A stretch of DNA of 63,576 bases, counting the filler, from Asterionella formosa (lineage: Eukaryota), in NCBI GenBank assembly GCA_002256025.1. It is 6 parts of 6 records of this genome, joined end to end, with 100 filler letters (N's around TTAATTAATTAA, not from the genome) between each part and the next. Parts side by side here need not be neighbours in the genome. Positions count along the whole stretch, not along the records: positions 1 to 28,066 come from NKIB01001314.1; 5 more parts are not named here. The stretch is one strand, 5' to 3'. Numbering within the stretch: the stretch's first letter is position 1; the number at the start of each line of letters is the position of its first letter. The notes under the pieces were generated by a model, which made no database searches, had not been told where the DNA came from, and saw only the letters and a list, made by a program, of their open reading frames with translations. Position numbers and translations under genes: made by a program. This document shows, in pieces, positions 2,945 to 49,470 of this stretch.

Positions 2945-3467
2945 GGTGACAGTGTCTTATTTTGAAATATCCGTTGATAGGTTCAACGATGGATGATGAT
3001 GTTCAGGAGATCTTTCAAATGTACATACGACCGGTACCTGGTACCAGTGGATTATAGTAGCCACCTGGTACCGTACCAGGTACCGGTATTTAAATAACCA
3101 TCGCATACCGTGGGATCCTCGCTGGTAAAAATGCCACGAGCGTCTTTTGTCCACAACGTAATTGGGTAATGAGTTCAAACAGGGACTTGTCGATGTCATC
3201 CTTTCTTTGCTACAGTATGTAATGGTCCCCTCAGCTGTCCGCCCTCCCAAGAAATCAAAATATCATATGTACTTATGTACGGTACATAAAAAAATTGCAC
3301 AGACAAGAAGACAATAGGCACACTTATAACCGTTGGTAACCGCCATTGGCTAATTCGTTCACAACTAGGCATCATCAGCGTCCCACGCTTACCACAACAC
3401 GGTTAGAAGCGGCGGCAGTCGGTTGTTTCGGTCCCGCTGCTGTCCTTTTTGGCCTGTCCACATTGGG

Positions 3468-7199: not shown

Positions 7200-7793
7200 T
7201 AATGATGAAAACGGGTCGATTATTAAGAAATGGTCTTGTGTAGCTAGCAGCAGCAGTAAATCTACGATATGCTGACAGCTAAGCTATAGGTGAGTGATGG
7301 GCAGAACGATTTGTGTTCTATTGAGGCAGACTGGCCTGATGATGGAAACGAAATGATTTTTTCTACAATCATTTCGTGGTGATGAAGGCAGCTATGTAGT
7401 GTGTATGCTGTACAACCTGGTACCTGGTACCAGGTACTAACTAACTTTACGATACTATAGATTTACTGCCAGTATTCATACATGAGGGACCCTGGCAGTC
7501 TACCGTACCTGGTGCTACCAGGTACCTCCTGGTACCAGGGTACCAGGTACTGTATTTGAGTGTCTTTGGTGTGGATAAATACCAGTAGGCAATGAGCTTA
7601 TCGTGCCACCGGTATACCTAGCACCGGAACAGAGAGCGTAGCTACATGACAGTACCTGGTACCAGTACTCCCTCATCATGAGTGGCCCTTCCTTGCATGT
7701 CATTCCTAAGATAGTTTTCATTTAAGACCACCTTCTATACAACGCGAAAACTGGGAGTAATAACAAACAGAGCATTACAGGGTTATGATACCA

Positions 7794-8609: not shown

Positions 8610-10305
8610 GATGGGGGGTCCTGCTGTTGGAATTGCTGGAAACAGTCGACACAATTTTTTTCTGAAGGAAAAAAGTGAGAACAGGCGTCAAGAGGGAACC
8701 ATGGTGGATGTACTACTACAAAATTGTTATTACCGTTACCAGCACTCGGAGCACCATGCCTGAAAAGGTATGTAGGAGGAGAGACTGCTTACCGGTAGCT
8801 ACCGGTATGTTGCGATTGAAGAAACACCATACAGCATAAGAATACCAGTAGACTGTACCTGGAGGATTTTTGTGCTATACGTACCCTGGGACCAGGTACT
8901 GTACCAGGGTACCAGGTAACTGGTACCTGGTACCAGTATCAAGCTGAAAGCAATTGCGAATGCCGGTTATGGCATACCGGTACTATCTTAGAATGCATGG
9001 TGCCTGCAACATACCTGTCCCTGGTACCTGGTACCAGTAACTGGTACTCAGCGAAAGAGTTCCGGGTAAAATGATTCCCGTGGCTGTGTTTCCACACATA
9101 ATAGTAAAAACCGTCTTCTATCCCGACCTTCAATCATGTGTCACCATTCTGGCAGGTTCAGTACCTGATACCTGCAACTGGTACCACCTGGTACCATTGA
9201 TGATGAGAATAGCTATGACGTCAACTGCCAGCTTCTACAGTACCAGGAACCAGGTGATTGGTCTCTCATCTGTCGTGGTGCGAAGCGAAGCAAGGGTCAA
9301 CCACCAGGGTGGACAAAACTCATATCGACTGCTGTCACTACATACATATTCCGTGTAAGAAATGGTGAGAAAATCACAATCAAAATTAGGTGCAAACCTG
9401 CAAAATAAGTAGCAGGAGGCAATCAGTCAAAGCTGCGTTGCCGAACAATGTGAGTCAACAAAGAATCGAAAGAGCTGCCACCACCAAGTCCACTGCTGCA
9501 CTGCTGCATCGTATTGGGCCGAGCAACGAGACAGCGCTTTCCTGATCTTCGTTGTCATGAATCGATCGCGTCCTCTGATGCCGCTGTAACTTTCATGCAC
9601 ACGAAGTTCCGTGGGATCGCGAAAGATCGTTCGTGTAGAACTCTACTTGACTTGTTCTGTGCGACTTTTTTTGTGATGTGCACTTCGCCCCGAAGCAGGA
9701 CTTGTCATCACTACAAAGTCCATGTCTACGAACGGTCGGTGATGATTCCATCCATGATATTTGTACGTGCATTTGTACAGGACGATACCGGTACAAAGGA
9801 TTGTATTCTATATGTGGACATGAACGAGATCTGATGTTCCGGTATGTTGGCAATCCTCACCCAACAAAAGAGTCGCCTCGACGCCATTCTCGCACGTGTG
9901 TGTGTAACTTCTGAATTCTTCGTCCCAAGCGCTGTTTGCTGCGATATTTAACACTGTTGGTGTTGCTACTTCTGCTGCTGCTGCTGTTTCTGTCACTCAC
10001 GTCTGAATTTTAGAGCAGAAAGGGTTCACAGACGGAGTGAATCGTCGTTCTCGTTGCTCATTGCGCACAACTGTCGCCTCGCCTATGTTTGCAACTGATT
10101 GCCTTTCTAGCTCACACTGCTGCCCTGCCCTGCCTCGCCTTGCCTGCAACTCGCCAGATAGGAACCCGAGAGGATCCAAGCACTTCATGTGAGCGGTCCG
10201 GTGGACGATATATCATACATAGTACACATACATAGATTCGTCAAACTGTCGGACACTATCGCCTCTCCACGAAGTATTGTTGAAGCGGCAGCACCCACCC
10301 CGCAA

Positions 10306-12113
10306 ATGGCCAAAGAGAGCGTGAGAGCCACTGAGGGGAAGACCCCAGTTGCCGTTGCCGAGGAGGAGCCAGGCAAGCAAGATCGAACATCCGTAGCACC
10401 CGTGTCAGACTCGGCGGACGCAATCAGAAATTCAGGGAAGTCAAAAGACAACAACTGTCCGGCATCTCCCCTGGCTCAGCCGCAGCAGTATCCTCAGGCA
10501 TATCTCCCACACTTGACCCCTCAACCTGGCGCTGGTTACTACCTCTATCACCAGCCTCAAGTCACGCCGGAGCCTCCTTCCCCGGGCGGGCTTTACACGG
10601 ACGTTACGTCCTTTCTGAGACAACAGGCAGCTCTCAATCCATTTGGGACCTCGCACTATGCCAGCGCTATTCCACAAGCACCCTTATCGCCTAATGGACG
10701 AAATACGGCTGGCATGATACCTCCTCCGTCGCCGCTTTTCCCGAGGCAAAATATGGACGGCTTGGAACCGTCGATCATGTCGAGAATGTCGGCGCAGCAT
10801 TCGCAATCTGCCATGTCCTACATGACGTCTCCTCCTTTGGGACCTATGGGAGCAGGATTTGGACCTGTCTATCAAGGGTATGGGGGAATTGGGTATACGT
10901 TGAATGGTGATACTGCTGGGACTGACGAGAACAGCACCGGTTGGAATATGAGGTATGCATTTTTGTTTGTCAAATTCGTCGTTTCCCCAAAGGTTAGCTA
11001 ACTGCGGTTTCCTGGTTCATTCCCCGTCGTCACAGTAATCAACAAGCGCAGAATGCAGGATACCCTCAAGCATCTCCCCAGCTTCAAAGTGTCATGTATG
11101 GACAGCCAAGCGGCAGCAATCGCTCCCAATCTTTCGACGAGATGCTGCCCCCTTCGATGCTTGAGCTTCAAGACCAAGCTAATTTGCCCTATTCTACTTA
11201 TGGTATCAGTCAAGGTGTTTCCGCTGGGATTCCACCGGGCAGTCCCATGTTTACACATCAGACTCAGCCGGCCTGGGGCTACGGGCATACTGCTGAAATG
11301 TACGGTGCTCCACAGTCACCCTTGCAGCCTCGTCAGAATTCGATGTCAGGCTACCCAGTTATGGGTCATCCTGGTGTGAGGCACATCCCCTTAAACCCCT
11401 ATGGTGCAATGGGATCACCACAGATTGGAGGTTTGCAATTTTTCCCCGCAACGTCTCCTGGCCCTCCTATTCAAACAACAACATCCAACAAAGGGCCCGA
11501 GGGGTCAAATCTCTTTGTGTTTCACATTCCGAATCATTTCACAAATCTCGACATGTACAGTCTTTTTTGTCAGTACGGAAATTTGCTAAGCGTACGTATT
11601 ATGGTGGAAAAGGATTCTGGACGCAGCCGTGGGTTTGGTTTTGTGTCATATGATACTCCGGAGGCTGCGGCGATGGCAATCAAGGAATTAAATGGCTTTG
11701 CGGTAAGTCAGCCGTCACTTTGTTTCCCATTTATTTTCCTCAAGAATCTCGAACTCATGTCTCTCTCTCTTTAGATTGGAAATAAACGGTTAAAAGTTCA
11801 ACACAAACAGATTCGTTCTAACGATCAACAGAAAGGATTCACTGATGGGGGCTATTCATCGCCTGGCGACCACCATGGAGGACTCTCATCCAGTCCTTGG
11901 TATGATGCCGTGACTAATTCTGCTCCTCCAGTAGGATACGCAGACCATGACGAAGGGAATCATGGTGATGAGGGCCCTTATCCGGGCCTTCCTGTTCTCG
12001 ACCAAACAACCATGAACATGGCACGAACAGCTGGAGCAACTGGGCAGTCGCCCCTTGCCACTATGGACCCACTTCGCAATGCGCTTCCAGATGTAACTGG
12101 GACAGTGGAATAG
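10306..12113 (+). CDS. RNA-binding protein with a single CELF/BRUNO RRM3-like domain after a long Pro/Ser/Gln-rich region; exons 10306-10952, 11036-11702, 11775-12113, ~550 aa
   Basis: KGPEGSNLFVFHIP..GNLLSVRIMVEKDSGRSRGFGFVSYD..AIKELNGFA|IGNKRLKVQHK. GT-AG introns restore the frame. Confidence 0.88.
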
Positions 12114-12430
12114 TGGGTCAGTAGGTGATGGGTGCACATACAAGCTCATGGCGAATACCCTAATAAGCAGGTTGCAATCTTGACATGTCTGTTCCATTTT
12201 GGTTTATCTGCATGCCACCCATGAGAACAAAGTCAAGTAAAAGAATTAGTTGTAACCTTGTTTTTATTTTGTTGAACAGCTAGAAAGAATTCCCTCTCTG
12301 TATCTTTTGTTTTACTAAATTTAGTGAAACAACAATGTCATCCCCATTCTTGTTCACCTATAGTCTTGGACTATCATGAATGAAGACAATTATTAGTTCA
12401 GGTTTCTTCAAGACAAAGGGGTCCTTAAAA

Positions 12431-12680
12431 GGATGTGGATCAAGCTGGGTTAGCCGCTTGGGTGGCTGCAATTACTGGTATCGGGTTCGATTCCAACATT
12501 CTCCACCTGCTTTGTTTATGTAGTCCCTTCGGGTTCCGGGTTGTGAGGCAGACAACAAGCAGGTCTAAGGCCCTCTGGGGGGGGGCCAAGTGTTTCCCAA
12601 TCTCCACAATTGTTGAGCGAGTTCTTAAACAATAGCGTACATTAAAATTTACTGACTAATTTTATTTAACTTTAATTTGT
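12431..12680 (+). mobile_element. Putative tRNA-derived SINE or structured ncRNA, copy A
   Basis: A-box-like TGGATCAAGCTGG, B-box GGTTCGATTCC (12484-12494), tRNA-like end CATTCTCCA, hairpin 12505-12564, further small hairpins and an AT-rich tail. Homologous to 38183-38309. Confidence 0.6.
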
Positions 12681-13065
12681 AACAGTTATCATTTCATATC
12701 GATGCATCCTTTCGTGTGTTGTGCCACCTCTTGTTCACTGTATATATGAGTTCCATAATTTCACTTTCACTGACCACCATGTCGACTTTCCTCTCATCTC
12801 CTGATGACGACAATGATGCCATGAGTGAACTAAAGCATTACAGAGAGACGAAGAAAACTTCAGCTTTTCTCAACAAGTCTTTGATCAAATCAGGGTAGCT
12901 AGAGCGAGGATACATGCTGGACTTGACAGAAAATTCACAATGAGGTATTGCCCTCCAAGACTCTACACTCCAAAACAAATGCCATCAGCGGCGCTTGCAT
13001 AGCTTGTTGCCCAATCATGCAATGTACTGAGTCAACATATTCCCAGCACTTTCAACAACAAGTTT

Positions 13066-13293
13066 GTGTCAATCCCCATGAAGATGGAGGTGAAATCAAT
13101 CATGATTTTTGATGAAATTAAAAATCGAATTCAAAAATTGCAAGAGCAATTGGCAGCAAGCCCAACCTATTCCCGACTTTCAATGAAAGGCTTGTATCAA
13201 TCCCCATGGCGGGGACAGAGGTGAAAGGAATCAAGTTTTCGATGACATTAAAAATAAATTTCAACAGTTGCAAGAGCAATTGGCAGCAAATCC
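13066..13293. repeat. Imperfect direct repeat, two ~100-bp units ~128 bp apart
   Basis: TCAATCCCCATG..GAGGTGAAA..GATGA.ATTAAAAAT..TTCAA...TTGCAAGAGCAATTGGCAGCAA occurs at 13066-13162 and 13194-13293. Confidence 0.75.
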
Positions 13294-14399
13294 AAATGTA
13301 TTGCATCTGTAGATAGTGAAAATGAGCTGCCAGCAGTGGAGATAGTGGACTGTGTTTTGTCTGGAAAATAAATTCCATGATGACGCCATTGCTGTACAAA
13401 GGATATTGCATTAATGAAGGTCCATATTTTCATCTAAAATGTATTTTTGTTCAATGCCAGTGTTGATGACATAATAGGGATATTACATCTAACAAATAAA
13501 TATGTAGAATGGTTAAATGCACTCAGTTTCTTCATTTTGCTTTATAATCAGCAACCAATACAGGCACTGCAAATGAATTGATAGTGCCACCACTCACATT
13601 GTATTGCAGGTGGACTGTGAGCAAGAAGGGAACATCACAACATCAACCAAAGCAGGCAAGTAGTGAGCATCTAATATATATTTAGGATGATTGATGTGTA
13701 AGTATGTATGTGCATACTGGTACCTATTTTGGTGGGAGCAAACCCTTTTGAATATGAGCAAGCACGAAGACTTGAGATATTCCAGAAAATTCTATGTAGG
13801 CATTCATGCCTATAGATCATCTTCTATAATGCGCTGTCATTTAAAACTGTAAAAATTTGTGTTTGTGTTATTGGGTACAACGATTTGTGTTTCAATACAC
13901 ATGCTATATGGCTGGGTGCATAATTGAAGAGCATAAAGTGGTACAAAACATTATTTCTAAAAATATAGCTAAATATTTTTGTGCAATAAATGTTTTTCTC
14001 TCAAAACCATCACCATGTTGATTGCACTCAGTTGGTTCCCTCTGCTTCCATTTCATGCCCTGTGTTTTCTTTGTTTCCCAAGAATAGTGATGTCGCTTCT
14101 TTGCATAATAAAAGCGTCACAACGTGATTATTAGGGGTTTCAAGGCAAATTCGAACTGGAGAGATGATGGAAAATATTGAAGTTGGATCGCTCAACAAAA
14201 GACCCAAGTTGATGCACTCAACTGAAGCTGATACTCCCTCGTCCATTGAAGCCTCTCAATTAGCATCAACAATTTCGGATAAAATAGAGCAAGAGTAAGC
14301 TTGTCCGAACACAAAATCTTGGAAGTCAGGTGAGCATATCATCGAATTTTTATTGCTGAATACTTCACGCAAGAGGTTAATGCTCCAAGGTACATTTTA

Positions 14400-15800
14400 C
14401 AACAGAAAAATCTGAACTTCTAGATTTACAAGGTTTAGCTGTCAAGAAAAAAGAATTTGATTACAGTGACCATGATGGAATCCCTATGGTAGAATACCAT
14501 GTGGACAACTTAGATACCTCACCAGATCTTCCAAGAGGAGGCAATTGTTGTTGGAAAGAAAATGACGAGCAAACTGTTATGATTGTTGGACAGGATGAAG
14601 CAATATTAAAACAATTCTTGTTGAATTCCAAGATGTGGACAGGTATGGATGGCAAGAGACCCTAATAACGAAAGATTAGGCAGGAGTAATGATCAGCCCA
14701 TTTATCACTCAAGAGCATGGCTTGATACAAGAAATTGATGACAATATTCTTACAATAGTCTAAGCCAAATGATTTGGAGTGAGTTATGCAGATGAGGAAG
14801 CTGCAATTGATGTACATGGGAACAAGAAGAAGAAGCCATTGACAAAAATTCTCCATTCTTAGTCTACTTTGATTATGGAGAAAATTGGGATGGCTACTGG
14901 AATTACAATCACATGTTGTGTCAACTCGAAGACAGAATTCATTTACTAAATGTGATGCATTGACAATATAAGTTTGTTTATCTATTCAGCCATTCAATTG
15001 GACACAGTAAACATAGACCTGATGGATTGAGTTCAGTCAGAATGAAATACCTATGGTGGAAAATGATTGCCCATGCAATCTACAATCACTGAACAAAAAG
15101 CAAGATTCCTTGGCCCCTTTCAAAGACATTTACAGCCTGGTCAAACAAAGCACCAAACAACCAACCTGATGATGTGGGCCCATGTTGGATGACTCCTCCT
15201 GAACAAGAAGCAAGTTGACATGATACCATCATTGGAGTACCCAGGGAAATGCAAAGAAGTCCAGCTCAATTCATTTTTGATCTTGCTGCTAAGGGAGCCA
15301 ATACTAAAGGGAAGAATAATTTGATCTGCTGCTCTTCTGTCCATAATATCATGTGCCAAGTTCAATGCAAATCTTAAGGGTCAAGGAGGATTGGGAAGGA
15401 GAACCAAAGAGATTAGTTCAAGTGCTTTGGGAAACAGGATTAATTGATGGAACAAAGTTGAATAGCTACACACTTACTGCTTGAAAATATTCATTTGGCC
15501 TAATGGAGAGAGAGGGCGCAACACCAGTCTTTGACATCCGATGTCCCTGCGCTCTGACTTCTTGAATGAACAAGGCATGATGTAGGTGTGAAATACATGT
15601 GGGCAGCCCATGTGCCAAAGGCACAGACCAGAATCTGGCATTGAAGGAGAAGAAGAAGAAATCGAATTTCATGGCAAGTGTTAAAACATGTTTGTCAGCA
15701 GAAGTTATTACAGGAGCCTAAATATCATGGAAAATTTCTTGACAAGCTTGCCAGTATATGTTGGCTTACTAGCACCATGCTCTTGATTCTGGCTTATTTG
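14400..15800 (+). mobile_element. Degenerate DDE transposase remnant (IS630/Tc1/mariner-related); boundaries approximate
   Basis: Fragments IVGQDEAILKQF (from 14582), DYGENWDGYWNYNHMLCQLED..FVYLFSHSIGHSKHRPDGL (14862-15047), VLWETGLID and CSDFLNEQGMM, interrupted by stops and frameshifts. Confidence 0.7.
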
Positions 15801-16533
15801 AACCAGAACTACAGCAGTAGCAGCACTCCAAGCATGGCACTGTCGAAATTGATGACCTTAATTTTTATTATGAGAGAGAGCCCGAAATTTCTGTATCATT
15901 AGAGCGAGCCCAGTAAAAACGAATACAAGTTACATATTGTAATGTCATTAAACTTTATTCGGAGAAACTATCGTCTATAGTTTGTATGATTGGGTCATTA
16001 TGTTATGCAGAAGTATGAATACCGGTTCTACATGAGGGAATCCCTTTGCTTCCTGATGAGTTGACGAGTCATTCTGCTTTGTTGTACAGCAGGTTGTACT
16101 TAAGGTCACCATCTGTTCATCAGGCATTTTGAAATTTCATTTTTAACTAACTATATACACCGATGCTTTCTAATGCAATTTCAAGTCACAATCTATCTAC
16201 ATATGTACAACATGGATACACAGTTACTCCGACATTCCATGTTAACTGGTAAAATACCTCTTTCCTAAGGTATGGTCCCAAGTACATGGTACCGGACGTC
16301 TATTCTGCATTTTACATAAGTATCTTCTTTTCATCTAGTATGTACAAAGTTCTGTTCTTCGTCTTGTTGCCAAACCGGTAAAGTATCACTTCCGGTATAT
16401 CATTCCTAGTGTGGTTAGTTGTTTGTTCGTTTTCTCACCGGCTTACTTTGCGGTTATTATCCATAGGCTCTGTTTGACTGCGGTAGTAACAAGCGTATAA
16501 ACTGCATACAATAAGGAAGCAAATAATAGAGAA

Positions 16534-18362: not shown

Positions 18363-20105
18363 TTAACTGGTTCTCGCCAAAGCAAGTGCCAGAAATCGAA
18401 TGGCTCGGTAAGCGTCGTTGTCATTCACGACTGATGTTGCGTTCATCCTTTCTCCTAGACCAGTGGCTGCCAAGTATGCATTCTTCCATTCTTCCACATC
18501 CAAAAGGTGATCTTCCTCCGTAATGAACTGCAAAACTTTCAAAAGTAAATCTAAGGATCCATTTCTGTGCATTTCCTCAATACAAAGTTGCTCTTGTGCC
18601 GTATTGACAGTATGACCAAGAAGGTCGCAAGCATAAACTTCAATGAGTCCACCATCGCCCGAGTATATAAGAACAGGCAGGGGAGTATTTCCTTCCTTTA
18701 TGTTAATATTTCCCGCTGTAAAACCATGTAGGTATCGAAGTGCTTCACCATCCTCTTCGTCGTCCTTTTCAGGAAACAGAAAGACCGGTACAGCGGATTG
18801 TGTTTCGCTTTTAGACGCGATCGGCAATAGATACGTCGTCCCTCCTCGTAGGCTACACGCCAAATGCGGCCCATTAGTGAGGTTGACCTGCCCCAGCCCA
18901 ATTGCTGGGAACTGCATCAACGCTTGGTTAATGTCATTTTCGACTCCCCACAAGAGAGATGGCTTCTCGTTGGCCAGGACGACGTTGGAATGCAAGATGG
19001 CGACCGTGCCATCGGAAAGCACTGTGGCAAAGAAGCCCTCGCCGGCGACCAACCGATCGCTGCCCATGCTAGCGCGACCACTTTGTCTCCGAGGAAGCAT
19101 GTCGTCAGTAGACGAATCTACCAACTCCCTGCCTTCGCCTGGCCAAATAAGGTAATCTCGGAGCGCTAAAGAATCTATGGACTCATTTCGATTTTTCCAA
19201 TCATCGGCGATCGTTGAAATATCAAGCACTTCCAGTGTTGAGGAGGACGTTGGCTTGCCTAAACCCTCGTGAGGGGGAGGCTGTCCAATGCAAACCGCAA
19301 GGTAAGGCGTTCTGCCGCCGCGATCAATGGTTGATATAGATAGAATGCATGTGTCAAATGCACCTCTCCACACTAACTTGATAGTCGACTGGTTCCATGA
19401 AGGAATGCGCTTGTTTTCTTGTTCAATGACTGGTACTGTCAACTGCCAGGCAGCGAGGCAGCCAGAGCGATAACTGACAAACACTGTGCCATCATTCTGA
19501 ATGCAAACATTTGAGGGAGAGAGCGATCCAGTTTCACAGCTAAATACCAGTTTCGGCACATTGTCTTCGTCATTGTTCACATCAACTACGTGCATCTCCC
19601 CTTCGCAAGTCAATGCAACAACATGTTCTGACTCGTGACCTGCAACTAGGCAACCAACAGCAAGTGCCACAACCGATCCAGAAAGCTGTACAACATGCGT
19701 TGGCAACACTGCATCTCTATCTAGCTGCTGCTTTCGCAAAGCTGCCTTTTCTTGTGAGCCTGCAAGTCCAATCTGGGATTTCTGCTCATTGTACTTGAGA
19801 GAATAAAACAGAAGCCGACTATCGTCTGTAGCAGACATGACATAATTGAGCAAAATCAGTGGTGCCACGGGAGCAGCACCGGCATAGATTGCATGATCCG
19901 GAGATAGCTTGGGGTGCACGAGTGTACAGATACGGCAAAATGTCCTCGGTTGAAGGGTTCGTAGTTGCCAAACGCCATGCAGTGGAGACGACACGGAGGG
20001 TGGGTGATCCAATCCTCCTGCAACCACTTGGGTTCCTGCTCGACGGCGGCGATGACGCTGTTGCTCCTGTTCATTGACAACTACGTGTTGTCCTCCTCCT
20101 CCCAT
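18363..20105 (-). CDS. Hypothetical protein, 580 aa, possibly beta-propeller-like
   Basis: Uninterrupted ATG-started ORF with many short beta-strand-like segments (VVALTCEGEMHVVDV, VFVSYRSGCLAAW, ATVLSDGTVAIL). Confidence 0.7.
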   Translation of the reverse strand: MGGGGQHVVVNEQEQQRHRRRRAGTQVVAGGLDHPPSVSSPLHGVWQLRTLQPRTFCRICTLVHPKLSPDHAIYAGAAPVAPLILLNYVMSATDDSRLLFYSLKYNEQKSQIGLAGSQEKAALRKQQLDRDAVLPTHVVQLSGSVVALAVGCLVAGHESEHVVALTCEGEMHVVDVNNDEDNVPKLVFSCETGSLSPSNVCIQNDGTVFVSYRSGCLAAWQLTVPVIEQENKRIPSWNQSTIKLVWRGAFDTCILSISTIDRGGRTPYLAVCIGQPPPHEGLGKPTSSSTLEVLDISTIADDWKNRNESIDSLALRDYLIWPGEGRELVDSSTDDMLPRRQSGRASMGSDRLVAGEGFFATVLSDGTVAILHSNVVLANEKPSLLWGVENDINQALMQFPAIGLGQVNLTNGPHLACSLRGGTTYLLPIASKSETQSAVPVFLFPEKDDEEDGEALRYLHGFTAGNINIKEGNTPLPVLIYSGDGGLIEVYACDLLGHTVNTAQEQLCIEEMHRNGSLDLLLKVLQFITEEDHLLDVEEWKNAYLAATGLGERMNATSVVNDNDAYRAIRFLALALARTS

Positions 20106-21665
20106 GCTAGCTCCGTTTCATTCCACGCGAAGTCACAACTTGGCACTTGAAATTATGACATTATGCCTTGGCGTGCAATGGTTAGGGTTGCGTATTCTTG
20201 GCAAGATATCAAGTCACATACCGGCTACTACGTAGCTATGCCGGTTCCTCGTAGATCTATGTACCTGGTACTCGTTCCCGGGATCATACATAGTGGTTGG
20301 GGTACCTGGTACCTGGTACCAGGTAAATGATGTGATATGGAGTACCGGTACATACGTGACATGATTACCGGTACCCTGCTACCTGGTACCAGGTACTTAC
20401 TACCGGTCGGCCAATGTTAGACCATACGTATGTACATCAAATACAGTAGGCTTTGTCCATGTACCAGTACTCCTACGTATGTATTGTTTAAATTTTAGGC
20501 TACCGGTATGTACGATTGTCATCACATTGTTGCTCTGGTGATCACATACTAACACATATGATACCGCTTCGTACCAGGTACCGTAATAAAAAAATAAGTA
20601 AAGCAAAAATATAATCTGTGGGTAATCAATCGTCTCAGGCTTATTTTGCCGCAACGTCCTTGCCCCAAATACAGATATTGCTATGTACTTCCGCATAGAA
20701 AAGGACTCACAGCTATGATCTGTATCCGTTCACGAATGAATGCATTGACAATGATCTACCGCCGGTAAGCCGGCACACTTACATCGTCCAGTATACCGGT
20801 ATGGATATGATAGAGGTGCACGATGGGTCCCATACCCATAACGGCGTTCGCTTGTGGTAGACCTTGCTACATACATCAAGAAGACATCATACCGGTACTT
20901 TTATCCATTGCACGAACTTTTGATAACACTTACTCACCTACTATTGGACGTGCTTCCAAAGATTTTTCCTGCTAGCTAGATTTAGATTTGTTGAATGGAA
21001 GACAGGATGATGGGGTTGTGATTCACATCTAGCTACAGTTCAGTAAGTGGGGCGGAGATAATGTAGGAAGCTGACAAAGAACTCATTACAGATATAGGCC
21101 GGTGGTCCTTCTCAAAAATAAGTTTGAGCCTCTCAAAATGCTATCATGAGTGAACAATGATTCTATTCAGTGAGGTAATATTCATCAATTTAATAATTAA
21201 AGGTACAATTGTAGAAAAGAAAGACAAACACCACTTCCAGTTGGAGTAGAAAGTATAATGTGCTGCTCTTCTTGTATGCGTGCATGTAGTTAGTGTGCAG
21301 TATCATGAAGCGTGGTATTGATTATGTAAATAACATTCAGCAGTTGTTGCCATGTCACAAGTAGCCCAAAAAGAGATCGACGTTGATGAATTAAATCATC
21401 AAAGTTGAAGCGAATATACAACTAGTTGGCAATAGCCAACATCTCTTGAAAGTCCAAAAAAGTTCCATTCTGAAAACCCATTCCCCTCGAGACATTTCCC
21501 TTGATTCTCGACTTGATGTTTCATTGACAACGTTTCCTGTGTGTTAATATACAATGTGCAAAGTGCGCATTCATACAAGAAAAGTAACACAGTAAAAGAT
21601 CCATATCTATTGACAGCGGCATTTGCAATCTAATGCACAATAGGAGATGCCCCCCGGGCGATCAC

Positions 21666-22502
21666 CTAATACCAAGTCAAGGATCCACTCCAGAAGGAGT
21701 CGTTGTCAAAGAAGACGTCTATGTTCGTTTCTGTTCCAGAACATGGAGAAGTGATCTTTACCATTTCTTCAGGATTTCCAAATGTCTCGATCTTGTCCTC
21801 GTGCAAAACGACAACACGAGAAATGTGGTGGCGGCCACCAGCTTGGTCAGAAGTAGCGAAAAGGTTGCTTAGCTCTTCAACGTCGACGGGTGTAGTCGAA
21901 GGGTCGACGTCAAGTTCTGCGAGCAGCTTGCGTTCCAAACGATATTCTTGACGAAATCTGAAGAGAGGAGCAGGATACATAAGTGAGAACCAGTATCTCA
22001 GGACACTTAGATTGATAAGAAATCAATGAACAACAGGACACATTCATAACAAAAAAAGGTGCCAGTCCCTGACTTCAGTCCACATTTTGAATTCTAAAAA
22101 AAGGTGCCAGTCCCTGACTTCAGTCCACATTTTGAATTCTAAATAAATCGCAACAGCTCGCAGATATTGCCTTTCCATTTCTTACCTTGTAAGTTGTTCC
22201 GGAGAGTAGAAAAGAAATGGCACGTCCTCGATGGGGGTCCGTGGGCACTCTTTAATCTCCGTTACTAAAGAATCCGCAAAGGATACCCTGCGATCGCTTG
22301 AAAGGGACGAACACTCAGTCGATGCAAGGGAACAGCAGTCATCGTCGTAGGATTCTACAGGCGACGACTGTTGGTCCTTGGGATACGATACTTCTACCCA
22401 TTCATCCTCGTCCACTGGATTGGATTGAAAGTGATGAAGAGGAAGAGTCGGCGCTCTACTTAAGACTGTCAACAAGGCATCGCGTTCAATCTTAATAGTC
22501 AT
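21666..22502 (-). CDS. Hypothetical 202-aa protein with an RVSF motif; exons 22502-22186, 21957-21666
   Basis: A GT-AG intron (22185-21958) joins two ORFs in frame, giving RRVSFADSLVT..RT..LFYS..TRFRQEY. Confidence 0.75.
22051..22140. repeat. Perfect 45-bp tandem duplication inside an intron
   Basis: AAAAAAAGGTGCCAGTCCCTGACTTCAGTCCACATTTTGAATTCT at 22051-22095 and 22096-22140. Confidence 0.95.
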
Positions 22503-23173: not shown

Positions 23174-23431
23174 CACCAGGTACCTGTACTTTAATGGAGT
23201 CGTACCAGTTACCGGTACCGGTACCAGAGACCTGGAATTCCCTGAAAGAAAGGTGCACGTAAGTACTGGTATCATCAAAGCAACATTACATCGACCATCA
23301 TTTCAGACACATTCCGCAAGCATTGCTGCCATACCGGTACCAGGTATGTGGTACCAAGTACCAGTACCAGGGTACCTGGTACCTGATACTTTACTTAATA
23401 TGGTACCCTGGTACCAGGTACCTGGTACCGG
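23174..23431. repeat. TACC(A/T)GG / GGTACC palindromic repeat array (one of ~15 intergenic clusters)
   Basis: Runs such as GGTACCTGGTACCTG and GGTACCAGGTACCTGGTACCGG. Confidence 0.85.
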
Positions 23432-26400
23432 TTCTCTATGTTGGATTAACCTTTTTTTATTTTAGAAAGAGTGCAGAATAAGGAGGTTGGGGTCATTTTC
23501 GTATCAACGAGGTCATTGAATTGATTGTGGTTTCACCGCTTTTGTATTGTGTTCACGAATACAAGAAAGCAAACTGTAACACGAGAATACGACAATACTT
23601 ACTTGAAGGCCCGGTTATCCAGAGATTTAGCTTGATCTTTTCCCATGTGAAAACGTGTTTTACCGGACCTTCCCTGGTAATGATACTCGATCATGACTTA
23701 ATCCTTCCTTTCTAATGAATGCTTGTCCAATGTCCTCACTACATTATTAGGGATGATAGAAACAATCTACTGACGGCAAGTATGAGCTATCAACCATCAC
23801 CATTAGTACCGTTATCGTTTTCCAACTCGGCGTACCAGGTACCTGGTAGGTGAAAGTGGACAGTCGCCAATTTATGTTTTCAACGCACCAGGTTACCAGG
23901 AACCAAGTACAGGTACGCCATTACCTGGTCTACCAGTCACTCCCAGGTCCCATGGTACCTGGTACCAGGTATCAAACCTTGAACTCCTACAATTGTTGTA
24001 CAACTCCCCTGGAGTAAATGGTAGTAGAGTACCAGGTAGAAAAACCTACCGAGTAATACGACATAGTATAGCCTCGATAGAGATAGATGTAGTCAACATT
24101 ATGACTATAGCTAGGTAGACTATTTCTGGTACCTGGTACTCCCTATTTGGACTTTTTGAATACTTGTAGATAGACTTGCATTGAACCATACTAACCATAA
24201 ATTAGCATACTTTCAATCAATAATACATACAAACGAAACTAGCTAGCTCAACAGATCTGGTATGCAAGTCTTGAGAGCATACTCATCACTTCGTCATGCA
24301 GCATGCTACAACACAGAAATCTAGCCCTAACAACAAATGGCCTAGTGCTAGGCATTACCTCTCTAAACAGTTGCCACTGTGCCTGGCCTTAAGTGTAGGG
24401 AGTCATAGTACAACAATTCCTGAATTGTTTAAGGGACACCTGGAATCAAATTTGACTTAGCTACATGCATGTTGAAAGTTACTTGCACCAATTCTCATCG
24501 AATTATTGAACTATTCAACCAAGAGGGAATATAACATGATTTCAGAGTCAGGATTCAATCTGGCATATATTTTGGTAATGGTTTACCTGGAAGACTAGTC
24601 TACTGGTATTATTAGATGACTGGTAAATCTATACTAGTACTAACTACTTATATATCCTGCTACATACCCCATATAATACCAGCATAAAAAGAGCATAAAC
24701 ATGACCGGAAGGTCCGATTCCAAGACTACCCACCAGTGAACGGATAATACAGTTCGACATAAGCCTGCATGACAGCCAGTATGAAAGACTGGCTTCTTTT
24801 ACCAATATTATTATCATTATCAATATCTCCATACAAATACTGGTACCTGGTACCAGTATTCCTATTCTTAAGAGTTTATGAGAAAATTTAATTGTCATAT
24901 GTGTGTATACTACATGTATCACAAATGAAGAGAATGTACAGTCCTGCCTATTTATCTCCTCATGAGGAAAACCAGTTTTGATGATGCTGGGTTGACCTTA
25001 GAGTAATATATTTTGACTACGGGGCAAACTTTCTCTTGTTCGGCGGTTTGAAAATAAATTATGAAACAGTGATTGGTTTGCTGGTTCGTGTTGCTCTGGT
25101 ATAACACTCCACAACATTTGTTCGACTTATCACACCCACCAGTATTGAGTTCTCCAGTACTCTTTTCCATCCAATGTGCCCTAGTACTAGTATGCTATTC
25201 TGAGGATCAAGTGTATTCATAGGGGGATACAAATCGACAAGATATTGCTATTTTTGTCGAGTTCCCTATTGGGGTTCATATTTCGAATAGATGTATAGCT
25301 GGGTGCATCATGAAACTACATTGGGTGGCCATCGTAGCTACCAGTACAACATAATTCTAGCTACCAGTGCAACATAATTTTAGCTTGACTAAACTGTTCT
25401 ATGATTCATATGAACAAATTTTATGTACACGTGCATCCGCAATCTTGTTGTTGTCATTGTGTTCATCCATGATGAACATGAAATCGAAGTCCATTGCACA
25501 GCAAGCAATGGGTGTGAAATTGCTGTTGTATCTTCATTGTTGCCTCAATTGTAACTACTATATGAACTTATTTGAGCCATAGCTGTACAGTTTCAGCTCC
25601 AGCTTGCTCACTATCAAGCTCAAGAGCTTTTCCATGTGAAACCTTTGGTCATGTGAGCATAGATCTGCGTGCCCATCACAAAATATTTCATATATATAAA
25701 AAGTTTGTGACGTCCTGTGCCGCTCCCTGTGTTCACTAGTAGCGCTAGTCATGGCGGAAATAAGGCTATTTGAAGCGGTGTGGGAGGATGTTCTATTGTT
25801 GAGTAAAGCAACAGAATAATGACAACATGGTGGATGTGATTATAGCATGCCAATCAAGGCGCAAAATATCACATACCGTAGGTTTAGGGTTTATGCTAAT
25901 ACCAGGCTGACAGGGTCTACCCAGTGGCCCCAAAAATTGCATCCAGCTAGCCATTATTCATAGAAATGTATGGTATTTTATCTACAGTATAAATCGACTA
26001 ATGGTACCTGGTACTGGTAATTGGCCTTATGTGGTCTAGTGCCAGGGTACCAGGTGTACCAGGTACCAGGGCCAGTCGGCGGGAATGACTTCATTGTTAT
26101 ACCGTTATCCGATGTGACGAGCAGGAAACGTACTGAAGTCCTGCCTGCCTTTCTAACTACCGGTGACATATCGTTCCACACTGATGGATATGGGGATATA
26201 TTTTTCTTGTTTTGGCGGTTATTATTAGGTACTCTTTCGTGTTGCACGGGTATTTACGAATCTTCAGCACTATTTGTTCGACTTATTACAGCCAGTTTTA
26301 TATTCCCTGGTCCTTGATGCGAAGCCCACTTTGTTGCAACCACTCTTCGAACGGTGCTCGGTTGGTCGCTCTATGCGAACTATCCATCAGCACCAGACCT

Positions 26401-28066: not shown

Positions 28067-28166
28067 NNNNNNNNNNNNNNNNNNNNNNNNNNNNNNNNNN
28101 NNNNNNNNNNTTAATTAATTAANNNNNNNNNNNNNNNNNNNNNNNNNNNNNNNNNNNNNNNNNNNN
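28067..28166. other. Assembly gap with artificial linker
   Basis: 44 N + TTAATTAATTAA + 44 N. Confidence 0.97.
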
Positions 28167-32669: not shown

Positions 32670-34836
32670 GGAAAAAGATATTTCGTCCCCCTCTTTTTGA
32701 TAAACCCTTAATTAAACCCTAGCCTACATAGCCTTCATATAAACCACCAATATCTTGTTTGCCACACGAAACTCAGTTGGCTTCATGACGCTGCTGTGAT
32801 GGCTGCTACACATATGCATGCACATTATAGTGGTCGAATTGATTCTGATGGCCTCAACCAAAGCTTTTGGAACCTTTTGGAACCTTTTGGGGACAATACA
32901 GAGGAGGTAATGGATGGCCCTGTACAGGCATTTGACAGCTCTGTAACCGATGATACAGAGCGAATTTGCGCACTTGAACAATCACTCATCGAAACTCATT
33001 ATACATGATGGCTGATGTCAAGACGAGATTATTGTGGACCTTATCATCTTCTCAGGTTTCCATCAAAAGACAAACAGAGGGAAAGCGACGGCACCTCCCA
33101 ACAATAAGGACCTTGTCCACCGAAAATTCAATGGAGCAGAAACCAGACCAACGATTTTTGGAAGTTGCATCTTGGGCTCCTTGTCTGGCATTAATTCTCT
33201 TCAATCTACCTGGTACTTTTACTACCATATTGTGATGTAGTCCCCTCCCTGCTGCTGTGACAATTAGCAACCATGACATAGTAGTATGAATTATAGCAAA
33301 TGACATATATAAATATGATTACTACCATATTTTGATCTGTAGACTACTATGATAATCATTGAAATAAATGTGTACTGGAGTGTCTAATCTAGCTTGTCAC
33401 ACACTTCTGTAAATTTTTCCAACATGTTGTGTTATTTTGATATAGGTACCTGAACACCACAAACTGTTTGACCAGACTTCCAGATCATGTTGATTTCAGG
33501 AAAATTGAAAAGTTTCGGGTTACATACATTCCATCTGTTGCCATGATTTCTAATTTTGGTAACTCATTTGAGGAAAAGGCTGCAATGAGATTGTATTCAT
33601 CCAAAGACAAAAAAACTCGCTTTCCAAAGTAACATTTACATTGAGTGACAAGCGATTCATTGCAATGAGCTCAAAAATTTGACCATGACCACATGCATCA
33701 TTTCCCAATGTCCTTCCAAAAGAAAATATGATAGCCTAGTAACCCCAAAAGATACAAAGGCTTCAATTTTGTAAGCCTCCTCACCTTCATCAAAAAATGA
33801 ATGCTTCTTTTTCATAAAACACTCCATCTTCTGGTTCTGACAAAAAACAACAAACAGCAGACTTTGTGATACAATCAAACTCCTCTTTTCGTTTCTCGCA
33901 ACTTTTTAAGAGAACCTAGAATTGAGGGCAATTCAAGCCCTTCATATTCGTCAATAGCTACTAGAAGACTTGGACAAGGTCAGATTCCTCATTTGCAAGG
34001 GGACCTAACCAGTCACCTCCTCAATTGCCTCTTCTAATGACTGCCACAAGTAGAAACAATTGTCATAATCAGGTTGATATCTGTCATTCTCATCTTCGCT
34101 GTTGCTTTCTGTTTCATCTTCACTTTCATTCTCCAAAGCATCCATGATCTCTGCAATTTCTTCTGGTTGTCAGTTCTTCATCATTTGACATGTTCTTAGA
34201 GTGTCATTCAGGTTGCGCTTTGCTGATTGCAGTTCATGTTCATCCAACCGATTTTGTGCTTTCAAAAATTGCAGTTTGCAGTTTATACACTCTATATTCC
34301 TGTATCACTCTACAAAATCTGATCCATTGATGATTCCATTTGTTACATTGCTTAGCTTCAAAGATTGACCCTGAGTTGACACAACATTGTTGGGAGGTAC
34401 CATCGCTTTCCCTCTGTTGGTCTTTTCATGGAAGCCAGCAAAGATAATGAGGTCCACAATAATCTCGCCTCAACATGATCATGTATGCTGAGCAAGGGTT
34501 GATGAGTGATCGTTCAAAGAGCGCAAATGCGCTCTGTATCATCGAATTACAGCGCCGTAGAACGCCTGTATAGGGCCGTCCAGTCCTTCCTCTGTATTGT
34601 CCTCAATAGGCTCTAACAGCTTTGGTTGAGGCAGGCATCAGAGTCGATTCGAACACAATGATGTTCATGTATGCATATGAGTACTAGCAGCCGTCACAGC
34701 AGTGTCATCGAGCCAACTGATTTCTGTGTAGCAAAAAATATTGGTGGTTTATTTGAAGGCTATGTAGGCTAGGGTTTAAGGGTTTGTAAAAAGGGGGGGA
34801 CGAAATATCGAAAAGGGGGACGGAATATCTTTTTCC
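32670..34836. mobile_element. Non-autonomous DNA transposon with ~440-bp TIRs, Mutator-like (MULE)
   Basis: Ends GGAAAAAGATAT...ATATCTTTTTCC. Imperfect TIRs at 32670-33105 and 34386-34836. TSD TATTTTAT at 32662-32669 and 34837-34844. Confidence 0.85.
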
Positions 34837-36009: not shown

Positions 36010-37368
36010 TTATTGGAAGGCATCATCCTCGTCGATAAAAATAGAATTAGGGGAGCTCACTTTGTCGCCAAGTTGCCCTTGCTCTGAAATGGACGAAGCC
36101 CCAGGATTTTCTGTGGTCATTGTTGGTGCTGAGTTGAACATTCCCTGCAAACTCTTCTTTGCGCTCAATCGCTTTCGTTCAGCGTCTATGAAAAACTTCA
36201 CGAGCTTACAACGCTCAGAGTGTGAATCGGCCTCCAGAATTTTCTGCATTGTGAGAGTTGATTCCAATACAAGGGGTTCAAGCTCAGCAGCCATTCGCTT
36301 TTGCAACTCTTTGACTTCCTGTTGTAACTGTGGAGAAAGGTCTTGAAAGCTGATCATGCTGGGAAGTTCCTCATCCTTAATACCTTTTTCTTTTCTGAGG
36401 AACGCTTGCAGTTTTTCTTGGAAGTCTCGCTGCAACTCATTCTGGCGCCCCACCAGACGCTGATCTACGTAGCTTTGCCACAAGCGAATAGTTTGCCAAA
36501 GCCCGTCTTCGCCTGGGCCGTCCTTCACAGCCAATCGATCAGACGAGGCCTTGGTGAATCTGATATCTTCCTCCAATTCATGTTGAGTCGTGACCAAACT
36601 AATGAAGCTGCTCCTCAAGGCTTGTTCATCTTTGGATGTGGCTGCACTCGCGATAGCCCCATAAACATCATTGCTCGCGGGTTGGACAGGTTCCTGGGTA
36701 TCGTCGAATATAGTTCCCTCAACCTTCAAGTACGTCTCTCTGCTGGCCCAGGCTTCTGGATTGATGACTCTGTGCAGCTTGACTCGACCCACGACTTTGT
36801 GGTTGCAAATGTACTTGATCGCATCGCCAGTTTGTTCGCTCACTTCCTTTAGATCTTCCAAGGCGAACAAAACGCCCGTCTGTGCGAATCTGCCTTGCTC
36901 TGTCGGATGCGACATGCTAACAACAAATCGTTTGGATCCATTCATGAGAATATCTGAGTACATTTGACGATACCGTGGCTCGAATATATTGAGAACATGC
37001 TGCGAGTTAGGAGTATAGACAATACCTCCTAGTGGGAAAAGAGGAAGGATCTCATTTCCGTCCTTAACAGACGTGATGACTTGCGACGATGACGTGAGAA
37101 CCGAGGGTAGCCACGACACTGAGTCGATTCCCTTTGACAAGGGTTCGCCACTGTCATCGTCGTCATCTTCATCGTCCACGGCGAGTTTGAGGGAAGTAAC
37201 TCGAGGCTTTCGATGTGTATCCTTCAATCCGAACGAAGCAGTATGGAAGCTGGTGGCAGAAGGCGACCTCGAGGTGGACTTGGCCGGAACAAAAGCCATT
37301 GCTGCTGGCAATAAGCCATTGCTTCCAGTAGCCGCAATCGAGAAGAGGACGCTATGCACAAACTTCAT
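36010..37368 (-). CDS. LON peptidase N-terminal (substrate-binding) domain protein, probably plastid-targeted; frame is open to 37500
   Basis: ILPLFPLGGIVYTP..LNIFEPRYRQM. Presequence ends AMA-FVP. No Walker A motif or protease domain is visible. Confidence 0.85.
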   Translation of the reverse strand: MKFVHSVLFSIAATGSNGLLPAAMAFVPAKSTSRSPSATSFHTASFGLKDTHRKPRVTSLKLAVDDEDDDDDSGEPLSKGIDSVSWLPSVLTSSSQVITSVKDGNEILPLFPLGGIVYTPNSQHVLNIFEPRYRQMYSDILMNGSKRFVVSMSHPTEQGRFAQTGVLFALEDLKEVSEQTGDAIKYICNHKVVGRVKLHRVINPEAWASRETYLKVEGTIFDDTQEPVQPASNDVYGAIASAATSKDEQALRSSFISLVTTQHELEEDIRFTKASSDRLAVKDGPGEDGLWQTIRLWQSYVDQRLVGRQNELQRDFQEKLQAFLRKEKGIKDEELPSMISFQDLSPQLQQEVKELQKRMAAELEPLVLESTLTMQKILEADSHSERCKLVKFFIDAERKRLSAKKSLQGMFNSAPTMTTENPGASSISEQGQLGDKVSSPNSIFIDEDDAFQ

Positions 37369-38182
37369 GATGAAGGTGTCAAAAGGACCGATACCGGTGG
37401 GCTGTTGAGAAACTTCAACAAATGCAGACTTGCGAGTCGCTGTGCAATGTTGTGCGGTGGCGGGATGCAGGGACTTGCGTGAAGAGAGCGAGCGGCCCAC
37501 ATTAATGTATTTACCGTACCAGGTACCAGGAACCTGGTACCGTAGTATGATAGATATGAATCAATCTTCGTCACGTGTGATGTAAAGGTGACCTTACGTA
37601 CCATTTCGACACACTTTTGGGGCGAAAAATCCTGTGCCATCCATTCTTTTCTTCGAAACGCAATTTTTAAGTGCGGAATCGATAGCTGACCTTCTTCGCA
37701 CTCAACAAAACTTTCGTCCGTTTAAAAACATATCGCATATTTATAAAAGTTATGGTCGTTTCCACAAAAATGTCCATTTTCGGGGGTTTCAGAATTCTTC
37801 CCCCCAAGATCCACGGGCACCGCCCGCACAACAACGTGGGCATTATAAAGTACATAGGAATACAAACAAGAAATAAAAACACGGTAGAAGCTCAAGAATT
37901 AACACGGTAGAATCACATGCTGACATGTAGGCTAGCGTGCTTGAGTTCTTCTCGACTTAAGTTTGGTAGTTTAAACTATTGCTATGGGAGTTAAAGTAGC
38001 CTTCTCATCTCCATAGAACACTACCCCTTATCATGGCTGCCTTGACATGAACATTGCCAAACATATAATCTGTCATTTTTGTCCCTCTGTCTTACATCCT
38101 CATCATTGGAGGGAGCTTGTGTGGATGAAGCTTTGCTCTGCATTGAATTAAACCAAGCATTCACTTAGAATGGATGAGATTT

Positions 38183-38309
38183 GGGGAATGGCTTAATTGG
38201 TTAGGACACCTCATGAAGTGGTGGTTTCAATTCCAGCATTCTCCATCTGTCTTTCTTTATGTACCAGTCCCTAGGGTTTCAGGGGGTGAGGCTGATGAAG
38301 AGACAGGTC
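38183..38309 (+). mobile_element. Putative tRNA-derived SINE or structured ncRNA, copy B
   Basis: GGGGAATG pairs with CATTCTCC (acceptor-like stem). A-box TGGCTTAATTGG, B-box-like GGTTTCAATTCC, and hairpin 38245-38308 homologous to copy A. Confidence 0.55.
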
Positions 38310-47733: not shown

Positions 47734-49348
47734 TGGTCAGTGACCAATGATGATGAATATGTAGAACTCCTGCATATAATGAACAAGATGCGGCATAGCA
47801 TACAAGAGGATGCACCAATGAAAATTTAACTGCTGAAAATTAAAGTTAAAAATATATCTAATGTTAGAGAAGTAATCCAAAATATCTCTAATATCAGAGC
47901 AGCACAAGGACGATATTATGTATAGCAGATCACCAGAATAATTTGTGTTATAATACACACATGATATAATATTTTTTTATTATCAGAGCACGCCCATTAT
48001 TAGGTTTTTCTGCACCTAAAATTCCAAGAACTGAAAAGGAAGTTTAACTTGTCTGTAGCCTTGTACCAGCATTTGTCTGGAGGATGAGAAAAAAAATCTC
48101 AATCATTTCCTGAATTTTACGTGCAGAATAACCTAAAATGACCCTCTGGGGCAGTTAATTGAACTAAAATTCCCCACCTTATTGAAAAGTATGCGCAACT
48201 ATCATTTCGTCAAAGCGAATTTGAGCTCTGCTAAGGCATTAAACATCCAGTGGCAATATGAACATTGCGTCCAATGCAAACAGTGAGAAATACCGCCCAA
48301 AACCCGGATGTACGACGTTGTTCTTCGGTCTTTTGCGAACTCTTGCGAACTTAGCGTACTTTTGCGGTCTTTTGCTGTTTTTTTAAATACCTTTAACATG
48401 GTACGAGTTCGATTTTAGATGAAACACAGTTTTTGTACATGACTTTTCATACTTTGGAGTTTCCGTCACCTCCCAGGAACCTGATACATCATAAATCTAC
48501 ATGCTACCCGGTACTATACTTCATACGGATGTCTTTTAACCATTTTCTGGAACTACTGGTATGATACCGTACCGGTACCTGTACCCGTTACAAGAAGCCT
48601 GGCTTTTGCTACTCCGCACCCCAGTCGTAACAGCAATTTGAAACTGTTTTCTATGTCGTATTCTAAGCAAAGCAAGCAGTTGGGGGCTGGAGTGTAAGAT
48701 ACCGGTACATCGAACCATGCATCTGCCCAACCCATCCATCTTATCGTGGGAAGCGAATGATGTCGAATCAAATCATACGAGCAGGCATACTCAATCGTGT
48801 CAGGCACCCGACGGCCTAGGTAGGAAGGAAAGCAAGGTACGTAACCCGCCGTACCTCGTCTTGTACGTCCAGGTTTTACGGTTCTGTACTACCCCGGTAG
48901 TTCTGAAACGCACGCTTTCGGAACTCCTTTTCTCCATCGAGTTTCGAAGAAGAACAAATGCCGTGCGGCCGGTGCTCAGACGAGAACAATCGTGAATGTC
49001 AATCAGTGATGTGGTAGTGCCAACTGGTGACCTGAGAGACTCTGTACAGTTACTGGTATGCTACAGCATTCCTTCTTCTCCTCAGTATTCACCTACATAC
49101 AGTCAATTCTGACTCGGCGGGACCCGGTTCCAGGTACTAGAGCTTCATAAAAACCGTACCTTGGCACTTCAGAATTGTGTGGAGTCTAATAACAGCTGAG
49201 CGATTGTGTCTACCAGTACGCATGTACCGGTCTTAGTACATAAACTACTTGCATATATGAAGGTTTATGGTACGTAATCCGTATTTACTACAGAATTGTG
49301 CAGGGCTACCGGTATTACGAATGCCTTACGTAGCCTTTGCTGCCCTTC

Positions 49349-49470
49349 GGTACCTGGTACCTGGTACCAAGTGGGGATACCTGGTACTGGTACCTGGTAC
49401 CAGGTACCCGTTGGCAAAACTATTTCCGATACTGCACATACAGTACTGGTACCTTGTACAATACCTGGTA
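49349..49470. repeat. TACC(A/T)GG palindromic repeat array upstream of the PI4K gene
   Basis: GGTACCTGGTACCTGGTACCAA...TACCTGGTACTGGTACCTGGTACCAGGTACC. Confidence 0.85.

Follow-up and report, generated by a model that had tools for sequence, protein, structure and literature searches.

Genomic setting of the two loci

The window, by which we mean the whole stretch of DNA analysed here (63,576 bases), consists of six contigs joined together and is not one molecule. The joins are five N44-TTAATTAATTAA-N44 linkers, spanning 28067–28166, 56233–56332, 58069–58168, 59905–60004 and 61741–61840; since these connect separate contigs, distances across them, including that from copy A to copy B as described below, are not genomic. 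The coding content is that of eukaryotic host genes, encoding RRM proteins, TPMT, a LON-N-domain protein, a PI4-kinase, a peptide deformylase and a La-domain protein. All homologues of the ORF at 36013–37368 (minus strand) that bear an organism name come from diatoms, with Fistulifera, Pseudo-nitzschia, Nitzschia, Seminavis, Cylindrotheca, Chaetoceros, Mayamaea and Epithemia represented, and the host is a diatom. The sequencing runs that contain the copy A stretch are labelled as freshwater, lake and 'algae' metagenomes.

Copy A, placed at 12431–12680 by a first-pass annotation of this DNA, lies on the first contig, and copy B, which begins at 38183, lies on the second. Both are intergenic, and their features are described here on the plus strand. 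The gene upstream of copy A encodes an RRM protein; its 72-nt GT..AG intron (11702–11773) is removed in RNA contigs, and a contig from poly(A) RNA (X9) ends at 12266 and is followed there by A21, marking the poly(A) site of the gene and placing copy A behind it. A metatranscriptome contig (X10) that carries the splice of the same gene reads on to 12525, into the repeat. The X9 contigs leave, for example, 12300–12399 and 12600–12799 without RNA cover, a pattern to be read with the proviso that assembled RNA contigs cannot show RNA polymerase III transcripts, transcript starts, ends or strand, nor absence. Copy B lies upstream of the LON-N-domain gene, which is on the opposite strand and starts ∼815 nt away. 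No ORF of at least 80 aa overlaps copy A or copy B, and the element is short (under ∼700 bp) and non-coding. Among the 25 window ORFs that were scanned there is no reverse transcriptase, LINE or transposase.

Homology between the two copies

Smith-Waterman alignment of 12483–12565 with 38223–38309 gives a score of 65, compared with a mean of 18.5 and a maximum of 26 in 300 shuffles, and blastn within the window aligns copy A with copy B over 74 nt at 78% identity (E 1e-9). Outside these limits the likeness is lost. The stretches upstream of the T-arm, which had been taken as the 'heads' of the two copies, reach 14 where shuffles average 13.8, which is not significant, and the stretches downstream, the tails, reach 14 where shuffles average 15.9, which is not above chance. 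We conclude that the homology of copies A and B is real and is confined to 12483–12565 and 38223–38309. The homologous span comprises the T-arm with its B-box, the common ...TTCCA(A/G)CATTCTCCA end that follows it, and a hairpin module of ∼60 nt.

Two features singled out in the first-pass annotation are found as described. The common end TTCCA(A/G)CATTCTCCA is exact at 12491–12505 in copy A and at 38231–38245 in copy B; with up to two mismatches allowed it has four matches where 0.47 are expected, a number that none of 100 shuffles reaches. The ∼60-nt module is likewise homologous, with TTTATGT, GTCCCT, GGGTT and GTGAGGC aligning in both copies. The two loci are best read as old insertions of one family that have since diverged to the level of identity given above.

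Further copies of the family

Evidence for other members of the family comes from contigs aligned to 11200–14199 at a likeness of at least 80%. Of the four sets, X1 and X4 are DNA runs from different studies, X9 is poly(A) RNA from a sample shared with X1, and X10 is a metatranscriptome. Summed depth in X1 is 665–852 over the neighbouring RRM gene (11200–12199) and climbs to 38,199 in the bin 12400–12499 and 277,545 in the bin 12500–12599; the corresponding values in X4 are 37.4 for the neighbouring gene, 691 and 4,371. The hairpin module of copy A is the deepest-covered part, with a summed depth of 200,000–569,000 in X1. Across 12482–12617 the summed depth in X1 and X4 exceeds that of the flanking single-copy gene ∼100–400-fold, a ratio that is not a strict copy number, being based on summed contig depth in metagenomes, where other organisms can contribute.

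The contigs concerned are distinct from one another and from copy A. At least 82 X1 contigs over the hairpin have flanks unlike those of copy A. Within the hairpin, G replaces T at 12542 in 82 X1, 34 X4, 4 X9 and 6 X10 contigs, and a 1-nt deletion at 12530, present in 34 X1 and 14 X4 contigs, yields CCCTTGGG, comparable with CCCTAGGG in copy B. Since an excess of ∼100-fold is seen in two independent studies, together with dozens of distinct contigs, this is a high-copy family, and it appears to number ∼100 or more copies. The first-pass annotation had proposed a SINE family, and the search for further copies speaks in favour of that proposal: they are numerous in two independent DNA studies, and many of them have a tRNA-like head and a tail in common. 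Other members occur within longer poly(A) and metatranscriptome contigs (X9 and X10), with loose ends of 255 nt on both sides in X9.

The window itself contains two copies, by blastn and by covariance model. A covariance model of the core of copies A and B, run over the window with filters off, finds only A and B, the next matches having E values of 1.9 or worse and being unconvincing. A 20-mer common to A and B has matches at nine loci in metagenome contigs, all of them unrelated beyond the 20-mer and attributable to chance, and no further copies were found in viral contig and prokaryotic genome collections.

The same contigs bear on the simplest alternative, that the two loci are decayed tRNA pseudogenes, or a chance likeness, and that there is no element at all. 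Both loci have T-loop-like motifs and neither ARAGORN nor Rfam calls a tRNA at them, as such a reading would have it. The two loci are, however, most alike in the ∼60 nt that follow the tRNA-like end, a part absent from any tRNA, and it is over this very part that the 82 or more additional contigs are found. We regard this explanation as improbable in the extreme.

The tRNA-like head

The head is seen most completely in copy B, where 38183–38245 forms a tRNA-derived structure. A 7-bp acceptor-type stem, GGGGAAU/AUUCUCC, closes it, and this closing helix is present in the minimum-energy fold. Inside this stem are a D-arm that includes the A-box-like TGGCTTAATTGG, an anticodon arm of reduced length, and a T-arm with one extra T in its B-box. 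In a permissive search this stretch aligns with the Rfam tRNA model over its full length (positions 1–71 of 71), at a sub-threshold 12.8 bits compared with a gathering score of 29 (E 9.1); the anticodon arm has 5 residues where the model has 13.

In copy A the tRNA-like part is limited to 12483–12505, a T-arm with a perfect B-box GGTTCGATTCC and an end, ...ACATTCTCCA, that resembles an acceptor 3' strand. Its only match in the Rfam tRNA search is an 11-nt stretch of the T-loop. The first-pass annotation had ascribed A- and B-box motifs to both loci; this is correct for copy B, which has a good A-box-like and a B-box-like motif, whereas in copy A the B-box alone is found, a head and A-box not being recognisable. 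The presumed head of copy A, at 12431–12482, is single-copy DNA without significant likeness to the head of copy B or to that of the family. An X1 contig at single-copy depth spans 12346–12524, from which it follows that this 'head' is unique DNA. With 12431–12481 single-copy, at shuffle level in alignment with the copy B head and without a tRNA match, the tRNA head claimed for copy A is not borne out. The stretch 12431–12482 is either a strongly diverged or rearranged head, or the flanking DNA of a copy that is truncated at its 5' end.

What a family head looks like can be seen where other copies part company with copy A. Just before 12482, 25 X1, 12 X4 and 3 X10 contigs leave copy A with a common, differing sequence. 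The consensus of these loose ends is CTTAGTTGGTTAGCTCACCTTCCGAGGTGG (agreement 0.91 in the 25 X1 contigs), in which a D-loop-like AGTTGGTTAG precedes the B-box and which includes a 5-bp stem with a tetraloop; it resembles CTTAATTGGTTAGGACACCTCATGAAGTGG, found at the equivalent place in copy B. Internal A and B boxes in a tRNA-derived head are thus present in copy B, at sub-threshold score, and in the loose-end consensus of the family. The likeness of copy A to the family begins at the T-arm, so that copy A is 5'-truncated or rearranged at ∼12482; copy B would be the near full-length member of the pair.

Neither locus is a functional tRNA gene. ARAGORN finds no tRNA gene in the window, no Rfam family, tRNA included, reaches its gathering score anywhere in the window, and the anticodon arm of copy B is cut to the 5 residues noted above. 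The permissive Rfam matches to ST7-AS2_1, SNORD24 and sR43 are at chance level (E 0.54 to 9.5), and a C-box-like TGATGA in copy B is absent from copy A.

A tRNA-like stretch next to a conserved module might also arise in another way, as the complement of the primer-binding site of an LTR retrotransposon, with the hairpin module as the end of the LTR. Read on the minus strand, the element does give the module followed by TGGAGAATGTTGGAATCGAACCC, complementary to a tRNA 3' end. The conservation of the family, however, extends across the anticodon-arm-like hairpin and the D-loop-like sequence, and copy B aligns with the entire tRNA model, far beyond a primer-binding site; the ORF scan, moreover, finds no gag, pol or reverse transcriptase nearby. 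An LTR origin is accordingly highly improbable.

The hairpin module

The module that follows the tRNA-like part is 61 nt long in copy A (12505–12565) and 65 nt in copy B (38245–38309). In copy A it is closed by an 11-bp stem with a 1-nt bulge, in which 12505–12516 pairs with 12554–12564; in copy B the closing stem has 14 bp and a 2-nt bulge. Both closing stems, as drawn at first pass, are recovered in the minimum-energy folds, where ACCUGCUU.GUU pairs with AACAAGCAGGU in copy A, and AUCUGUC..UCUUUAU pairs with AUGAAGAGACAGGU in copy B. The inner part of the module is a different matter. An inner CCC/GGG hairpin had been described as kept in both copies, but it is not the same structure in the two: the minimum-energy inner pairing is UUCGG/CCGGG in copy A and UCCCU/AGGGG in copy B, and use of the first G-run would leave copy B with a loop of 2 nt.

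Arm consensus fragments from other copies extend this picture. The 5' fragment reads TCTCCACCTGCTTTGTTTATG... and the 3' fragment ...GGCAGACAAAAGCA, and these can pair with each other, as CCTGCTTT/AAAGCAGG plus GT/AC over a bulge. The closing stem is thus a feature of the family and not of copies A and B alone.

The first-pass annotation had further held that the closing stem changes on both arms together, through an extra T-A pair in copy B and a G-C to C-G swap. The extra pair stands: columns 28 and 81 of the alignment each hold an inserted base, one per arm. The swap does not hold as stated, since it hinges on where the gaps are placed; in the MAFFT alignment 0 of 11 pairs are changed on both sides. 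In that alignment, which compares two sequences only, 21 of 22 cells are paired, three pairs have a change on one side, one is broken and none is changed on both sides. The six folds calculated for the two copies show no extra stability over dinucleotide shuffles, with z from −0.91 to +0.04. When mutation is simulated with 12 substitutions and 6 indel positions, the load seen between the copies, the 14 closing pairs survive in 2.4% of 2,000 trials (p 0.024) in the direction from A to B, and the stem is kept in 5.0% of trials (p 0.050) in the direction from B to A, values that derive from a crude null model and n=2. With this crude null and two sequences, the simulation hints at descent of A and B from master copies in which the stem had been retained. 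The claim of a co-varying hairpin whose fold was under selection is not upheld by two sequences, an alignment-dependent change, z values near zero and a borderline simulation, and we take the evidence that the hairpin was kept by selection as suggestive.

These results also bear on whether the loci could be multi-copy functional genes, transcribed by RNA polymerase III, for a structured small RNA with a selected fold, the hairpin perhaps being freed by RNase Z. The placement of the hairpin, which begins at a discriminator-like A right after an acceptor-type stem, would suit such genes, as would the retention of a long closing stem under the substitution and indel load simulated above, and the origin of the additional base pair of copy B by insertions on both arms. 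We nevertheless consider this very unlikely. Fold energies are close to those of shuffles, no pair is altered on both sides in the MAFFT alignment, and the inner hairpins of A and B are unlike each other; neither a head nor an A-box can be recognised in copy A, and there is no Rfam match. Hundreds of diverged copies with indels, some of them within longer RNAs, fit a mobile element better.

A related possibility is that the element encodes a tRNA-like and hairpin RNA, transcribed by RNA polymerase III, whose hairpin is functional and selected, either as a recognition structure in retroposition or as a small RNA freed by RNase Z. This too is distinctly unlikely. Were it true, the paired insertion and the possible G-C/C-G swap would be true compensatory changes in the master copies, and the family would be the first structurally defined, high-copy diatom SINE with an RNA element under selection.

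Extent of the unit and its ends

Behind the hairpin module, copy A has a tail at 12566–12617, with a run of nine G residues inside it, that belongs to the family unit: one X4 contig aligns over 12482–12617. At the G9 run of copy A, behind 12582, the match to 30 X1 contigs ends; these continue with a common CCAAGTGCGACTTCACAACCTCCACA... (agreement 0.88), which resembles the sequence of copy A itself at 12583–12615. In copy B a possible diverged tail can be placed at 38310–38345 from its likeness, by eye, to the family tail, its alignment score being the sub-shuffle value already given for the tails (14 compared with 15.9). The family unit accordingly consists of the tRNA-like head, 12482–12617 and possibly more, and is at least ∼190 nt in length.

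The ends of the unit carry few marks of the insertion process. Comparison of the 5' flank with the 300 nt behind either copy gives no target-site duplication of at least 8 nt, the copies being old and their 3' ends undefined; a single 7-mer direct match near copy B falls within the presumed tail. No A-rich, simple-repeat or LINE-like 3' end can be defined. A terminal inverted repeat spanning the whole unit is not seen, the inverted repeat closing only the internal module of 61–65 nt.

It is here that a different kind of interspersed repeat has to be weighed, either a MITE or other non-autonomous DNA transposon, whose hairpin arms would be inverted repeats at the DNA level and not RNA structure, or a fragment of a larger element with a captured tRNA-like piece. 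No target-site duplications, tail or LINE partner have been found, an inverted repeat of 11–14 bp bounds the module, and two X1 contigs jump from arm to arm (12513>12556 and 12519>12552), all of which would speak for a repeat of this kind, as would the 1.6 kb behind copy A, which is also high-depth repeat, with up to 131,782 in the X1 bin 12700–12799. The sequence of the family, however, continues past the inverted repeat on both sides, and as far as the unit can be traced no terminal inverted repeat is seen to span it. Its 5' part is tRNA-like, with D-loop and then T-loop motifs in the right order and at the right spacing, which is the signature of a SINE head and not of a MITE. The 1.6 kb behind copy A looks like other elements, since the repeats there begin at separate break points, with loose ends before 12665 and 12776. 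On balance we judge a non-SINE repeat unlikely.

We consider it probable that both loci are insertions of a tRNA-derived SINE family of a diatom. For such a family, the unit order would be a tRNA-derived head with a shortened anticodon arm, then the ∼60-nt module, whose closing stem of 11–14 bp would start directly behind the discriminator-like A, and then a tail of at least ∼50 nt. Master copies would be transcribed by RNA polymerase III from the internal promoter formed by the A and B boxes, and a partner LINE would supply the machinery for reverse transcription and insertion of the SINE RNA. The hairpin would be an ancestral feature of the family RNA, retained by copies A and B as well as in the consensus fragments of others, and it may serve RNA stability or recognition during retroposition.

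Relation to known elements

SINEs of tRNA origin have a type 2 internal promoter for RNA polymerase III and are organised as head, body and tail. The family described here resembles them in being short and non-coding, with a tRNA-like head that has A and B boxes, a body that is not derived from tRNA, and many copies, of which diverged and apparently 5'-incomplete examples lie in intergenic DNA and within longer transcripts. It departs from typical members in the anticodon arm, which is cut to a 5-bp stem and a tetraloop, and in the hairpin that lies directly behind the tRNA-like 3' end. Of the further marks of such SINEs, target-site duplications and a tail type have not been found at copies A and B, which are old and lack defined 3' ends, nor has a LINE partner among the 25 ORFs scanned.

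The tRNA-like domain followed by a hairpin also recalls the TMERs of murine gammaherpesvirus 68, which are units of tRNA-like and pre-miRNA sequence transcribed by RNA polymerase III, with pre-miRNA stems of ∼22 bp. By analogy, RNase Z could in principle free the hairpin here. Unlike TMERs, however, the stems in this family have 11–14 bp and large interior loops, and the element is a high-copy repeat of a diatom genome.

Among stramenopiles, fifteen infSINE families are known in Phytophthora infestans (Whisson et al. 2005, as cited in the available text of PMC5063351); our family is likened to these by description. SINEs have also been listed in diatoms. The Phatr3 annotation of P. tricornutum has 13 'putative SINE' copies amounting to 1,454 bp (available text of PMC5859163), SINEs were identified in the v2 assembly of Cyclotella cryptica, with roles described as 'poorly understood' (available text of PMC7466962), and a SINE class with 45.8% GC is given for Pleurosigma pacificum (available text of PMC12803021). 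The host group and the broad class are the same in these cases as in ours. As far as the available text of these papers goes, the entries are putative or are totals for a repeat class, with structure and tRNA origin undescribed and, in P. tricornutum, a very low copy number. The present family has apparently ∼100 or more copies and a defined head and hairpin, and is set apart from them on the descriptions in those texts. The suggestion made at first pass that the element is undescribed in diatoms therefore needs qualifying: SINEs are already listed there as putative or class-level entries, whereas no characterised tRNA-derived family was found in the literature as far as its available text extends. 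A described and structurally defined diatom SINE family of tRNA origin was likewise not found in that text, to which the search was confined, so that the family may match a repeat already catalogued.

A diatom SINE family with a clear tRNA head, a hairpin and apparent copies in the hundreds would be a concrete case for study. It would allow work on retroposition driven by RNA polymerase III, on the LINE partner and on effects on neighbouring diatom genes, and would give a marker for strain and population studies of Asterionella formosa, a freshwater species. Only a functional hairpin would make it a new kind of biology.

Other repeats in the window

Several other repeats were noted in the course of the analysis. 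Behind copy A, 12600–16000 is a low-GC block (39%) of other high-depth repeats, in which the X1 bins 12700–12799, 13200–13299 and 13800–13999 have summed depths of 78,000–132,000 (the first of these being the bin cited above). It includes a 60-nt direct repeat at 13106 and 13236, 130 nt apart and 85% identical, and the two ORFs tested in the block have no Pfam domain.

A palindromic motif with 7-nt periodicity, GGTACC(A/T)GGTACC, has 43 matches in the window at up to one mismatch, compared with 0.02 expected. It forms intergenic clusters, for example at 3033–3084, 7419–7663, 8908–9035, 20301–20582 and 23350–24140, with further clusters at 37515–37541, 39590–39609, 49349–49408 and 57301–57320. 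Several of these lie 150–600 nt before start codons, such as those of the LON-N-domain gene and of the ORF at 18366–20117 (minus strand). One possibility is a promoter or boundary motif, another a microsatellite-like repeat of the host diatom.

Two contigs have the same ∼1.4 kb in opposite orientation, at 46291–47733 and 60301–61740, with 913 nt at 94% and 522 nt at 92% identity. The likeness reflects either a haplotype or duplicate contig or else a dispersed repeat that contains ORFs, and the ORFs at 46251–46829 and 46917–47747 have no Pfam match. Nested inverted repeats (45 nt at 96%, 76 nt at 79% and 132 nt at 78%) at 32712–33105 and 34386–34779 surround ∼1.3–2 kb and represent a candidate foldback or DNA-transposon-like element. 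Finally, a 45-nt sequence is perfectly duplicated in tandem at 22051–22140.
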